This document shows, one piece after another, positions 40,728 to 63,036 of a stretch of DNA of 64,000 nt; position 1 is the stretch's first letter, and the number at the start of each line of letters is the position of its first letter. This stretch comes from Clostridia bacterium. GTDB taxonomy: Bacteria > Bacillota > Clostridia > JAAYHZ01. The notes beneath the pieces were generated by a model. That model saw only the letters and a list, made by a program, of their open reading frames with translations, searched no databases and was not told where the DNA came from. A program made the translations under genes and the position numbers. Location of the stretch: the NCBI GenBank assembly GCA_050950825.1, contig JBMNIH010000004.1, forward strand, positions 224,001 to 288,000, in the 5' to 3' direction.

Positions 40728-41351
40728 ATGGAATACGATTGCAGAAAGGAAATCGAAAGACTTCGAAAAGAAATCGAGGATTTGAAGGAGCGATTCGGCC
40801 GAATGGAGCGCATCTCATCGAAGGAACCGCTAAAAAAGCCTCATATTATGAGAAACGAGCAATCGAACCCGGAGTCGAACCGTATTATGGATTCTCTGTT
40901 GGAGATCAGTGAAAAAGAAAACCGTACGGGAAGCGTAACGTGCATGGGGGTTTTCCGGTCGAGCGGAAGGCAATCTCAATGGATTACGGAAAGCCGAAAT
41001 ACGGACGATTTGTTGGCTTTGATTGAAATCAAGTTGGCATCGGCGGTACTGCAGTGCATCGGCAACAGCGACCGCTTGAACTTGCTTCTTACGCTCTTGC
41101 GTACGCCTATGACCGTCGCTTCTTTGGTTGAAAAGTGCGGATTCAATACCACAGGACAAGCGTATCATCATCTCAAGCCGTTAATCGCGGCGGATTTGGT
41201 TTATGAGGTTGAACAAGGAGAAAGAGGCGTTTACGCCGTAAGACCTCATCGGGTGCAAGGTATCATCATGTTATTAGCCGGTATAGCGGATTTGACGGAT
41301 CCGAGATACTCCCGGGGAAATTGGATATCGGATGAAAGAGAAGATAAATAA
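40728..41351 (+). CDS. Winged helix-turn-helix (ArsR-like) regulator with N-terminal coiled coil
   Basis: RLNLLLTLL..PMTVASLV...TTGQAYHHLKPL..ADLV..RGVY. Confidence 0.75.
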   Translation: MEYDCRKEIERLRKEIEDLKERFGRMERISSKEPLKKPHIMRNEQSNPESNRIMDSLLEISEKENRTGSVTCMGVFRSSGRQSQWITESRNTDDLLALIEIKLASAVLQCIGNSDRLNLLLTLLRTPMTVASLVEKCGFNTTGQAYHHLKPLIAADLVYEVEQGERGVYAVRPHRVQGIIMLLAGIADLTDPRYSRGNWISDEREDK

Positions 41352-41416
41352 ATTTTACCGAAATGACGATACGACAAACTTGTTAAAAAACGAATAAAAT
41401 CTTATGATATAATGAT

Positions 41417-41521
41417 TATGCGTTTTATCAATTCGCAACACAAAAAGAAACCACCACAATGTGAATGTGGCGGGTGTTGTAAACTAAAATATATTCGGAC
41501 AAGAGAATTGATAAACGCATA
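41417..41521. other. Long bulged hairpin adjoining the mobile element end (candidate ncRNA or folded target site)
   Basis: TATGCGTTTTATCAATTC / GAATTGATAAACGCATA stem with one extra T; inner GCAACAC/GTGTTGT and CCACCACA/TGTGGCGG. Confidence 0.55.
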
Positions 41522-41728
41522 TTGTACCAAACCGCGTAGGTTCTCATTTTCCCATGGGAATTTTAAAAGGTCAACATCGGTTTGATTCGAACATTTTAGG
41601 CTTAAAAGTACGTTAAAACGGTACTTCGCACCTTGAAAATCGAAGAAAAAGCGGAAAATCGCCTGAAAAAGAGCAAGCTACGCCCTCCCATAAAGGGTCG
41701 TTTTACACGATATTCAGTTGTCAAGAAT

Positions 41729-42886
41729 CTACGGTCCGGTACCGGTAGGCAATAAAGCCGGCTGCGCGTACAAAGAGCGAGGAACCAAAAGAAAAGATTG
41801 GCTTCCGCATTTCGGACAGCGGTCAAGAGGTTCAACTTTGCACTTGGGGAATTCTTGAATAACTCCCGTGGGTGCGGTTGCCTTCAGCAAATCTCTGCAT
41901 AATTCCAAACGCTCTTCTCTTCCTCGGTTGGCAAGCAATCCGTAATGTCGAATTTTCATGAATCCTTTGGGCAACACATGGAGGAGAAAACGGCGTACGA
42001 ACTCGTCTTCGGAAAGCTGCATGATCTTGATTTTGTTGTGATCTTTGTAATCTTTCCAGTGGAAACGCACCGTCTGCGTGTCGGGATTATGAGAAACGAT
42101 TCGGCTGTCCGAGATCGCCACTTTGTGAGTATATCGGCCGAGATACCGTATAACGGCGGAAGCGTCTTTAAACGGTTTCTTGCAATAGCATACCCAATCC
42201 TTGGAGTACAGTAAGTCCAGAAATTGTTGCCTTTTTTGAACGGTATCCAAACCTTCCGTCAATTGAAGGGTGTTATTAACAAAGAATGTTTTCAATTCCT
42301 CGAGGAACTTTCCCCGGAAAACGATGCTGATCGCTTTAAGAGGAAGGAAAAAGGAATCTTTGGAAACAACGAATCGTTTGCGATCGCTGGACAATCCGCC
42401 GCCCGTTACGATACAATGCAAATGGGGATGGAACTGAATGTTTCGCCCCCATGTATGTAAGACGGCGATAAAGCCGGGTTGCGCCCCGAGAAATTTTTCG
42501 TTCTCCGAGAGAGTCAAAACGGTTTGACTAGCGGCACGAAAGAGCAGATTGAACATATTGTCGGGGTTTGCAAGAAACAAGGGATTGAGTTCGGCAGGCA
42601 CGGTGAAAACCACGTGGAAATAGGGTATCGGGAGCGTGTTGGCGACTTGCTTTTCAACCCATTTTCTTTGGTTGGACCCTTGACAAACGGGACAATGTCG
42701 ATTTCGGCAGGAATTGAAATGTGCCTCGGTGTAACCGCAATCGTCACATCGTTGGACGAATCCTCCCATTTCGGGAGTGCGGCACTTACAGATTGCGTCA
42801 ATGACTTTTGTTTTTTGGGGAGAATAGCTTTGGGACGGCAATCTCTCTTTAAAGGACTGAAAGATCTTTTGAATTTTAGAGGACAT
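41729..42886 (-). CDS. IS91-family (HUH/Y2) transposase
   Basis: Zn-binding CRT...CDDC...SCRNRHCPVC, HVVFTVP, HTWG, HPHLH (HUH), YLGRY (Y2), KIRHYGLL. Confidence 0.93.
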   Translation of the reverse strand: MSSKIQKIFQSFKERLPSQSYSPQKTKVIDAICKCRTPEMGGFVQRCDDCGYTEAHFNSCRNRHCPVCQGSNQRKWVEKQVANTLPIPYFHVVFTVPAELNPLFLANPDNMFNLLFRAASQTVLTLSENEKFLGAQPGFIAVLHTWGRNIQFHPHLHCIVTGGGLSSDRKRFVVSKDSFFLPLKAISIVFRGKFLEELKTFFVNNTLQLTEGLDTVQKRQQFLDLLYSKDWVCYCKKPFKDASAVIRYLGRYTHKVAISDSRIVSHNPDTQTVRFHWKDYKDHNKIKIMQLSEDEFVRRFLLHVLPKGFMKIRHYGLLANRGREERLELCRDLLKATAPTGVIQEFPKCKVEPLDRCPKCGSQSFLLVPRSLYAQPALLPTGTGP

Positions 42887-43751
42887 TAAAATCACCTCCG
42901 AAACCGTCAGCCGGACTCTTCACCCCTTGAAGATGCTTCCGTGCCAAGTGCGTGTAACGTTTGGTGGTCCAAATGCTTGCATGACCGAGTAGGGATTGTA
43001 TGACTTCGATATCTTGTCCGGATTCGTAAAGGTGTGTCGCAAAGCTATGGCGTAAAGAATGAATGCACGCATTTTTGCGGATTCCGGCTTTTATTACGGC
43101 ATCATGAAACGCCTTTTGGATTCCCTGCGCTGCCATAGGCTTACCGGAAGAGGCACCCGGGAAAAGATAAGGACCTTCAGGTCTGTAAAGCCTCCAATAA
43201 TCTCGAAGAAGCGTCAAATACTCCGGAGACAGTATCGTATAGCGATCTTTGTTGTTTTTACTTTTTCGAACGGCGATCTGCATATTCTCACTGTCAATAT
43301 CTTTGATTTTTAGATTCAAGGCTTCTCCGAGACGAAGACCTGCAGAATAACAAAGGTATAGAATGACTCTGTATCGAGGGTTTCTTATGTAGGAAAATAT
43401 TCGTTTGATTTCATTTTGCGACAATACGGCAGGCAGTACAGTTTCCTTACGAACACGAGGAAGTAAAGACTCATCAAAAGTTTTTTGCAATCCTACACGG
43501 AAGAAAAGACGTATGGCTGCTCTGACTTGGTTGATGTAATCCGCACTCAAGGATCGCTTAACAAGACCGTGCAAATACAAAAGTACATCTTGCTGAGAGA
43601 TTTGACAGGGATGTTTCTGAACCGTTTGATAAAACTTAATAATTTGTCGCTCATAAAGATAGATTGTTCTTTGAGAATAACGGCAGGTCTCAAGAACAAA
43701 CTTAACATTGTGGAGCGCTTGATCAAAATCGACGGATAAATTTGTTGACAT
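42876..43751 (-). CDS. Tyrosine recombinase/integrase with N-terminal SAM-like domain
   Basis: YSAGLRLGE, K, HSLRHSFATH, LLGH, TTKRYTH catalytic set intact. Confidence 0.93.
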   Translation of the reverse strand: MSTNLSVDFDQALHNVKFVLETCRYSQRTIYLYERQIIKFYQTVQKHPCQISQQDVLLYLHGLVKRSLSADYINQVRAAIRLFFRVGLQKTFDESLLPRVRKETVLPAVLSQNEIKRIFSYIRNPRYRVILYLCYSAGLRLGEALNLKIKDIDSENMQIAVRKSKNNKDRYTILSPEYLTLLRDYWRLYRPEGPYLFPGASSGKPMAAQGIQKAFHDAVIKAGIRKNACIHSLRHSFATHLYESGQDIEVIQSLLGHASIWTTKRYTHLARKHLQGVKSPADGFGGDFNVL

Positions 43752-43939
43752 AACAATACCACCTTTCAAAATCAAATTAATGGGAGCTATTATATACGAT
43801 TTTGAAGGTGATAGGAATTAAATATAAAGGTTAGGACCCGAAAAGGGTAAATACTGTTGAGCTACCGCGCAGCGGTTTGGTACAATTATCGGTTATACGG
43901 GGTTTCTTTAGATACCCTAAATATCATTTGAGGTTTTTT

Positions 43940-44431
43940 ATGGCCAAAGGAAAAATAACGTGTTCCTTTCAATTGAACGAAAAGGATTTTTTAAATTTTA
44001 ATTATGCAGTCAATCGAAGACCGCTACGCTTTATGCTGTTGTATGGTTTTATTTTGATGGCATTGGTTATCGGTTTTGAAGCCGTAAAAGAAAAAATAAA
44101 CGTCATTCCTATCATGATCGGCTTGTTCATTATTATCCTCTCCTTCGGCGTTACCCTTTTCAATATGGTTCGAAAAAGCAGAGAAGGTTGGGCGGTAAAT
44201 ACGGCTTTTCATGACCCGATGACGTTTGCGTTTGACGACAAAGGATTTTCTTGCACGACCCCTAAGCATTCGGCTCGTGTGACTTGGCAAAAAGTCACTA
44301 AAGTCGTATGGGGGAAAAAGATTATTGTTATCATGACGGGAGGCACCCAAGCCTATTTAATACCGACACGGATAGAAAACATAAACGAGGTAAAAAAAGT
44401 GATATGGGAGTACGTATCACATAAAAAATAA
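43940..44431 (+). CDS. YcxB-like membrane protein
   Basis: Two TM helices followed by FDDKGF...VTWQKV...YLIPTR. Confidence 0.65.
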   Translation: MAKGKITCSFQLNEKDFLNFNYAVNRRPLRFMLLYGFILMALVIGFEAVKEKINVIPIMIGLFIIILSFGVTLFNMVRKSREGWAVNTAFHDPMTFAFDDKGFSCTTPKHSARVTWQKVTKVVWGKKIIVIMTGGTQAYLIPTRIENINEVKKVIWEYVSHKK

Positions 44432-62816: not shown

Positions 62817-63036
62817 CCTCTTTTTTTCCTCTTTCGTTATACGGAAAGGATAACACAGGAGGTAAGATCAAACAATCCCGGACGTCAAGAACGGACATTA
62901 TAACAGAAAAAACGAAAAAATTCGACATGAGAATCCGGCTTCGTTATACGGGTAAAACATTGAATTAATATAAATCGTTTTTCGTCTGTTTGGTATAATT
63001 GAGAGGTAAGAAATCTGATTTTTAGAGGAGACTTTT

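Follow-up and report, generated by a model that had tools for sequence, protein, structure and literature searches.

The window analysed here is a stretch of 64,000 nucleotides (nt) from the genome of a Clostridia bacterium (assembly GCA_050950825.1, contig JBMNIH010000004.1, positions 224,001 to 288,000), and plain coordinates below are those of the window. At 41414–43886 (2473 bp), it carries an active, multi-copy insertion sequence of the IS91 family. The element belongs to a subgroup in which the gene for a Xer/integron-like tyrosine recombinase precedes the gene for the HUH-Y2 rolling-circle transposase. The span was set from four identical copies, the tandem period, and metagenome unitigs.

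The two genes and their products

Both genes are on the minus strand and were identified by domain matches and catalytic residues. The recombinase gene (42876–43751) encodes 291 amino acids from an ATG at 43751 (or starts from a TTG at 43775), and the transposase gene (41729–42886) encodes 385 amino acids from an ATG at 42886. A first-pass annotation of the window, made from the sequence without database searches, had claimed an intact integrase and an intact HUH/Y2 gene overlapping by 11 bp with an internal GGAGGTG ribosome-binding site. This was confirmed: both genes are intact and co-oriented, the overlap is 11 nt with the transposase ATG at 42886, and GGAGGTG is located 6 nt upstream of that ATG. 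The transposase gene is translationally coupled to the preceding recombinase gene, and the recombinase is predicted to be catalytically intact and co-expressed.

The transposase matched Pfam Zn_Tnp_IS91 (9.5e-30) and Y2_Tnp (2.1e-60) and scored 423 bits with the NCBIfam model NF033538, IS91 family transposase (cut-off 125). It is a HUH-Y2 transposase with an N-terminal zinc-binding domain, the combination by which elements are assigned to the IS91 family. The HUH motif (H153-P-H155) and both tyrosines (Y248 and Y252) are invariant in 10/10 aligned members. The recombinase matched Phage_integrase (1e-40) and, at its N terminus, SAM_4, and its R, K, HxxR, H, and Y residues are likewise invariant in all ten. 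Its gene is situated within the element, directly upstream of tnpA and co-oriented with it, which places the element in the recombinase-carrying IS91 subgroup. The best NCBIfam scores of the recombinase were those with the archaeal XerA and integron-integrase models, all under the cut-off. The equivalog scores (score/cut-off) were 206.5/220 for XerA, 159/335 for XerC, and 158/330 for XerD, and the protein was assigned to neither XerC nor XerD. It was not assigned to IntI either, as TIGR02249 gave 188 bits against a cut-off of 265, in two stretches, and NF011946 gave 120 against 435. The nearest solved structures by sequence were XerA (4a8e, 5hxy), IntI4 (2a3v, in two stretches), and XerD.

Boundaries, copies, and abundance

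The genome (G000; 3.55 Mb, 11 contigs) contains four identical copies of the element and a 63-bp solo piece of its left end. Two of the copies are located exactly head to tail on contig C7, with a tandem period of 2473 bp. The unit was defined as 41414–43886, because the junctions of the genome copies align there and the length equals the tandem period. The junction alignment (junctions marked by a slash) reads flank-TATAAT/GATTATGCG ... GCGGTTTGGTACAAT/flank, and the first bases of the element are GATT. The right junction is GGTACAAT/flank, and the tandem joint is GGTACAAT/GATTATGCG, i.e., GGTACAAT/GATT. All four copies share one internal orientation, as does every relative examined.

In three metagenomes, unitigs of 2477–2480 bp terminated at the same element ends, and the depth of the element was 7–10 times that of the flanks. 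The head-to-tail joint was crossed by a metagenome contig consisting of element sequence alone, which corresponds to a tandem and is no proof of the circles with abutted ends, single- or double-stranded, that serve IS91 elements as intermediates. In four sequencing runs, searched as contigs only and thus silent on rare forms, no joints were listed, strand-changing ones included. Among 40 related genomes, no element DNA beyond weak pieces was found. The C7 tandem occupies G000:C7:293087-298032, and the recombinase of one of its copies was 99.7% identical to the others (tblastn, 299 residues), so the dimer is not a fresh assembly artefact of one copy.

The element region was also followed in six metatranscriptome runs (X15–X20, five studies), which contained about 0.80 of the words sampled from the stretch, equal to the share taken up by the element (41414–43886). 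In run X15, a contig covering 42136–43267 had a depth of 216, compared with 13–16 for the remaining element; the excess may reflect expression, related elements, or DNA carry-over.

Target site and junctions

By analogy with IS91, position 41414, downstream of the transposase gene, would be the oriIS end and position 43886 the terIS end. The element inserts directly 3′ of TG(A/G)TATAAT, on the strand antisense to its own genes and without duplication. The four left junctions in the genome are TGATATAAT, TGGTATAAT, TGATATAAT, and TTATATAAT, each ending in TATAAT. Four more left junctions come from contigs of runs X9 and X2, whose match to the window begins at 41408 or before it (with one unlocated mismatch in each of two contigs). 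TATAAT was present in 8/8 distinct left junctions and TG(A/G)TATAAT in 7/8, the exception being TTATATAAT at the solo fragment. The background frequency of TATAAT before a genome position is 3.9e-4, and TG(A/G)TATAAT has 245 occurrences with the two strands counted together. In the window, the TATAAT of the target is at 41408–41413 on the plus strand, in the flank outside the element (with the three preceding bases, TGATATAAT), as located by the genome and metagenome junctions and the empty site. On the other side, six distinct right flanks diverged right after 43886 or at most 3 nt beyond. The flanks of three full sites had no repeat in common beyond the target-like hexamer, in line with the absence of a target duplication reported in the first-pass annotation.

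An empty site was available for the copy on contig C10. In the same-genus genome G001, a sister species, the corresponding flanks are 389 bp apart, compared with 2860 bp, and the orthologous site (~70% identity) has a single TGTTATAAT followed by CA. The four identical copies, the tandem, the sister-species empty site, and the extra metagenome junctions make this copy unusually informative, and because of all of them together the ends are fixed to the base.

The far end of the element, on the 43886 side, is TGGTACAAT and resembles the target. Because of this resemblance, a new copy can land right behind an old one, which explains the tandems. In its letters, the target resembles an extended −10 promoter box, and in the window a YcxB-like gene has its ATG 55 nt further on. 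The last 30 nt of the element (43857–43886, plus strand) score as promoter-like: they contain an outward site, TTGAGC-N18-TACAAT with TG before the second hexamer, identified by consensus match only, and its −10 hexamer falls exactly at the former TATAAT position. The element end might in this way restore expression of its neighbour. A co-oriented downstream gene was clear at 1/3 full insertion sites. By eye, no dyad symmetry consistent across sites was found around the insertion points and the joint.

Two further observations were made in the window. Positions 62985–62999 read TCTGTTTGGTATAAT, an unoccupied stretch that matches the terminal 15-mer at 12/15 positions and contains a full TGGTATAAT target. 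The ArsR/HTH-like gene at 40728–41351, immediately to the left of the insertion, is missing from the corresponding position in G001, where only ~150 bp separate the outer flanks.

Inverted repeat, arm, and folded joint

A perfect 15-bp inverted repeat connects 41521–41535 (plus strand; ATTGTACCAAACCGC), the internal inverted copy of the last 15 nt, with the terminal 15 nt on the terIS side, 43872–43886 (plus strand; ending in TGGTACAAT and placed by the repeat and the junctions). In the first-pass annotation, the repeat marked the outer limits of the element. The repeat itself was recovered by the repeat search, but only the right copy is terminal: the unit starts at 41414, 107 bp before the left copy begins. 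The sequence between that start and the left copy (41414–41520, plus strand; 107 nt) is the oriIS-side arm, in which GATT (41414–41417) is followed by a stem of 41418–41434 with 41505–41520 around a loop. The arm was delimited by the joint fold, and an equivalent arm is present in relatives.

The natural head-to-tail joint was folded as single-stranded DNA, giving −39 kcal/mol (z −8.15; 0/200 shuffles as good), with the same energy on the plus strand and on the other strand. In the fold, the terminal 15 nt pair with 41521–41535, and the 15-bp inverted repeat is therefore one stem of the folded joint and not two outer ends. The second stem (41418–41434/41505–41520, with one extra T) follows directly, and GATT is the only bulge between the two stems, 4 nt in length and exactly at the joint. 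The two stems, the bulge, and a variable loop can be set beside an integron attC site, which folds with R and L boxes, an unpaired spacer, extrahelical bases, and a conserved GTT/AAC at the crossover; no GTT/AAC core was seen at the junctions. Inspected by eye, the joint fold of the window had no dyad-symmetric binding arms around the joint. Searching 41200–44100 against Rfam gave no match at E values up to 0.1.

Several smaller features accompany the ends. An inner arm hairpin followed by a T run (41451–41473, minus strand) has a terminator-like score and would suit the recombinase-transposase transcript. Gene-ward of the internal repeat copy, a perfect palindrome, TTCCCATGGGAA (41549–41560), was read in the sequence as part of an AATTCCCATRG-like motif; by eye, similar motifs occur at loci L024, L031, and L027, in Rhizobium copies, and in genome G021. 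Next to the terminating end, a small subterminal hairpin, ACCGC-GCA-GCGGT (43864–43876), was also read in the sequence, and its stem recurs with variable loops in five Rhizobium copies and in L027. Two minor motifs named in the first-pass annotation fared differently. The sequence TTTTAAAATTCCCATG is indeed present on the minus strand at 41553–41568, though ~140 bp from the real end of the element and not about 30 bp inside it. The weaker related copy proposed near 41578 was not upheld: it has more than three mismatches to the 15-mer, and on sequence alone it is no more than chance, because even matches with three mismatches are expected about twice per window (four found, 2.04 expected).

Solo fragments of the arm were observed twice, at G000:C4:567529-567591 (outside the window) and at positions 128–192 of locus L066 (G076:C100). 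They are 63–65 nt in length and correspond to the outer half of the oriIS arm. Both adjoin a target-like flank (TTATATAAT in G000 and AACGAACTAAAGG in G076) and end inside the arm loop, so the same kind of remnant is present in two unrelated genomes. Such fragments could be the footprint of hairpin breakage or of an aborted event. At the G076 solo end fragment, the flank beside the oriIS end repeats 8/8 bases of that element's own terminus.

Relatives of the element

The survey covered 399 scored Clostridia genomes, 21 of which had a transposase match at E values up to 1e-20. Loci were evaluated when at least 900 nt of upstream DNA was available, and L030 and L032, which start at contig ends, were left out. 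A recombinase gene was found directly upstream in 11/13 evaluable loci with at least 37% transposase identity, the exceptions being L028 (a short gene) and L047 (a pseudogene with four stops), and in 0/5 evaluable loci of 24–31% identity. Both genes are retained in nine intact relatives and overlap in eight of them. Among plasmids, 426 records matched at E values up to 1e-30, mostly from Rhizobiaceae, with a transposase identity of 43–46% among the 30 best; in Rhizobium, the gene pair is annotated as 'tyrosine-type recombinase/integrase' and 'IS91 family transposase'. On a Variovorax plasmid (L051, NZ_LR594665.1; transposase 44.5% identical), an IS1071 transposase gene was observed in the place of the recombinase gene, and no recombinase is annotated within 3 kb upstream.

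The end layout recurs with other sequences in L024, L031, L027, L029, Rhizobium, and G335. Five diverged copies from Rhizobium/Sinorhizobium define a 2490-bp element that starts with GGATTGAACGAAGCCGC and ends with CCAGATTC, and variation among them is confined to hairpin loops. In the Rhizobium joint fold, the terminal 17 nt pair at 15/17 positions with the internal copy, followed by a ~10-nt bulge at the joint and then the arm hairpin. In G335 (ends fixed by three junctions per side), 12 bp pair perfectly, the joint lies in an 8 × 7 internal loop, and an arm stem is present; G337 has one copy only, so no ends were set for it. In G076, the repeat spans 25 bp with three mismatches and the arm is long, and in L029 the repeat spans 22 bp with a single mismatch. 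The internal copy and the arm of G021 are homologous, but this relative carries an additional palindromic stretch, ~85 nt in length, at its other end. Among Y2 loci lacking the recombinase, 0/7 evaluable ones had a cross-end repeat above the shuffle maximum; because two of these were within one point of it, the repeat is not claimed to be special to the recombinase-carrying clade.

The G021 relative (L018 and L019; G021:C1 at ~945 kb and ~1297 kb) is 2.5 kb in length and present in 4–5 clustered copies, with 51% transposase and 42% recombinase identity. Its copies show paired changes (TTC...GAG vs TAC...GTA) in the subterminal palindrome on the recombinase side, which is near-perfect in two copies. 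With regard to guanine-cytosine skew, the transferred strand is the G-rich strand for the C4 and C10 copies and for both G021 clusters, C7 is ambiguous, and the solo fragment is opposite; a bias for the lagging-strand template is possible, though weakly indicated and based on sites too few for a test.

Mechanism and the role of the recombinase

With slightly better than even confidence, the element is considered to follow an IS91-type pathway to which the recombinase contributes a helper step of some kind. According to the available part of PMC13181058, IS91 transposes without duplication, its target tetranucleotide abuts oriIS, downstream of tnpA, a related tetranucleotide is found at the terIS cleavage site, the ends have subterminal palindromes, and a bottom-strand circle is inserted. 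The window element obeys every one of these rules that can be tested by sequence, and it differs in its longer match, TGRTAYAAT. On the IS91 model, the Y2 enzyme would nick between the flanking TATAAT and GATT at oriIS, replication would peel off the plus strand, and a second cut, after TACAAT at terIS, would close a single-stranded circle. The joint of the circle would then fold, the last 15 nt pairing with 41521–41535 and continuing into the stem of the 107-nt arm with GATT bulged out. The Y2 enzyme would set the circle beside a new TG(A/G)TATAAT, as IS91 TnpA does with its tetranucleotide. A reading in which Y2 acts alone would draw on classical IS91. As a leading guess, the recombinase would assist by reacting with the folded joint or with aberrant (read-through or multimeric) products.

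Several points weigh against this account. Cleavage 3′ of a recognised arm is common to HUH enzymes and tyrosine recombinases, the enzyme responsible at AAT/GATT cannot be told from the sequence, and no result pins the cut at the joint to either protein. A strictly linked recombinase with all its catalytic residues is hard to square with a dispensable helper. The target similarity of ~9 nt exceeds the classical IS91 tetranucleotide. A cross-end repeat above every shuffle was obtained in only 4/10 evaluable members, the Rhizobium copy being equal to the maximum. The G021 joint fold is weak (z −1.3) and its flank-to-terminus resemblance is not clear, and in G335 this resemblance is shifted by 3 nt. 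In the contigs of the four runs, neither circles nor empty sites nor strand-specific reads were found.

In an alternative with a possible but clearly lesser claim, labour is divided as in integrons and CTX phages: Y2 would only copy out the single-stranded circle, and the recombinase would join the folded, attC-like joint to double-stranded TG(A/G)TATAAT by a single strand exchange that is then resolved by replication. The strict linkage and the intact catalytic residues fit such an essential step, and the 9-nt target is of a size suited to a duplex. The recombinase scores best with the XerA and integron-integrase models and is closest by sequence to the XerA and IntI4 structures, and the part of bioRxiv 10.1101/542381 consulted places IS91 recombinases in an integron-like subgroup. 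On the other hand, the extra helical insertion in the catalytic domain that is specific to IntI is missing, and the integron models and 2a3v match in two stretches. The geometry is that of an integrated cassette: a box before the 3′ stem-loop is complementary to the nucleotides at the start of the element, and the joint is at the edge of an unpaired spacer (the 4-nt bulge here, ~10 nt in Rhizobium, and the 8 × 7 loop in G335). Against this, no dyad-symmetric arm pair was seen by eye at the joint, nor was a GTT/AAC core seen at the junctions. Behind the element, the flank is similar to the nucleotides with which the element starts. Integration of a hairpin should also give stable head-to-tail arrays, because the duplex joint is no substrate for reversal, and such arrays were found. 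Classical IS91 needs TnpA only (PMC13181058, in the part available), and no experiments or reads bear on the division of labour. If it applied, the element could, tentatively, be a self-contained cousin of the integron cassette, in which Y2 peels off the single-stranded circle, the recombinase pastes the folded joint into double-stranded TGnTATAAT, and the element's own end replaces the −10 hexamer so that the downstream gene stays expressed.

It is improbable that the recombinase serves as a resolvase, in the manner of Tn3-family TnpR/TnpI, for the cointegrates or multimers that form when rolling-circle replication overruns the terminating end. In favour of this role, one-ended transposition is frequent in IS91 (18–53% of events, Table 3 of PMC13181058, a source seen in part). 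A comparable job is plausible in that orf121, upstream of IS91 tnpA, acts on end recognition. An efficient direct-repeat resolvase would, however, remove head-to-tail dimers. Here a dimer persists in which each copy has a full-length recombinase gene with an identity of 99.7% or more to that of the window (tblastn), and this persistence weakens the resolvase role. Least probable by far is action on the two 15-bp repeats as duplexes, by which the recombinase would excise and integrate 41521–43886, as proposed in the first-pass annotation, or flip this segment relative to the arm and an outside promoter. The repeat is perfect, and the −10 box at every left junction could read into the element. 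Inverted sites nevertheless yield inversion and not excision, and the copies are bounded at 41414–43886 and not at 41521–43886. The flipped orientation was found in 0/4 copies and in none of the relatives examined, and no strand-changing joint was present in the contigs of the four runs. The copy boundaries and the uniform orientation contradict both an inversion switch and excision at duplex repeats. Of the original proposal, the two-enzyme mobile element stands and its reaction at the inverted repeats does not; the annotation had itself named boundaries away from the repeats as evidence against it, and the left boundary of the genome copies is not at the left repeat. What would survive of it is the idea of a single-stranded circle made by the HUH enzyme, with the recombinase then acting on the repeat in the form of a folded hairpin and not of two duplex ends.

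With a 9-nt promoter-like target, an end resembling that target, and a conserved folded joint all defined, the role of the recombinase can be tested with defined substrates. The gene pair is common on rhizobial plasmids and, as described in the part of PMC11194056 consulted, is found beside tetX/catB11 in Bacteroidota. If the relationship with integron cassettes holds, the IS91-linked recombinases would gain a function, and a plausible evolutionary link would exist between rolling-circle insertion sequences and integrons.

Comparison with known systems

The first-pass annotation had regarded the element as the best candidate for an undescribed system in the window, which does not agree with the literature and databases. 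In the consulted part of bioRxiv 10.1101/542381, IS91 and IS3 recombinases without the IntI insertion are included in an integron-like subgroup, and those of IS91 are named as the nearest kin of the integron integrases (the term 'IS91' does not occur in the published version, PMC8138268), and the gene pair is annotated on many Rhizobium plasmids. A tetX-catB11-IS91-XerD cluster has been reported (PMC11194056, in part), and an IS91-family element has been named beside an attC site (PMC9229058, in part). No literature on the ends, the mechanism, or the recombinase role of this subgroup was found in a search that had ISfinder, TnPedia, and paper supplements outside its range.

The element shares with classical IS91, IS801, and IS1294 the HUH-Y2 transposase family, the lack of target duplication, and the subterminal palindromes. 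As far as the sources consulted in part describe it, IS91 also inserts next to a specific target, on the side lying downstream of the transposase gene, carries a related sequence at its opposite end, and has a gene upstream of tnpA that overlaps it (orf121). That upstream gene encodes a full tyrosine recombinase here and a 121-amino-acid protein in IS91, and the target similarity is ~9 nt (TGRTAYAAT) here and 4 nt there. In the window element, moreover, a perfect complement of the terminal 15 nt stands next to the oriIS arm, which gives one long hairpin at the joint; the available text of PMC13181058 has no mention of cross-end pairing for IS91, whose sequence itself was not compared.

In the IS200/IS605 family (IS608), a HUH enzyme acts through a single-stranded circle, and the target is known by resemblance to, or pairing with, an internal sequence beside a hairpin. 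The element is similar in its HUH enzyme, its proposed single-stranded circle, the target resemblance on the hairpin side, and possibly, though weakly, a lagging-strand bias. It differs from that family, which has a one-tyrosine enzyme of another family, no recombinase, and short guide tetranucleotides.

With IntI acting on attC/attI and XerCD acting on the folded CTX phage genome, the element has in common a related recombinase subgroup, head-to-tail arrays, and a folded single-stranded site with two stems, an unpaired spacer, a variable loop, and a presumed crossover at the spacer edge. The recombinase may contact the joint hairpin. In contrast to them, no IntI-specific insertion and no conserved GTT/AAC core were seen here, the element encodes its own recombinase and a HUH enzyme, and there is no platform with a promoter and attI.

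The closest known elements are those of the recombinase-carrying IS91 subgroup (ISfinder entries and Rhizobium plasmids). They agree with the window element in the two genes and their order, in size (2473 bp for the window element against 2490 bp for Rhizobium L052), and in the end layout, and their transposase identity is 43–46% (Rhizobium, among the best records listed). The end and target sequences are different, and the host lineage is new, an uncultured Clostridia bacterium from digesters. The pairing of transposase and recombinase is thus already catalogued, and what is added here is that the ends are known to the base, that the target resembles a promoter, and that the folded joint is conserved.

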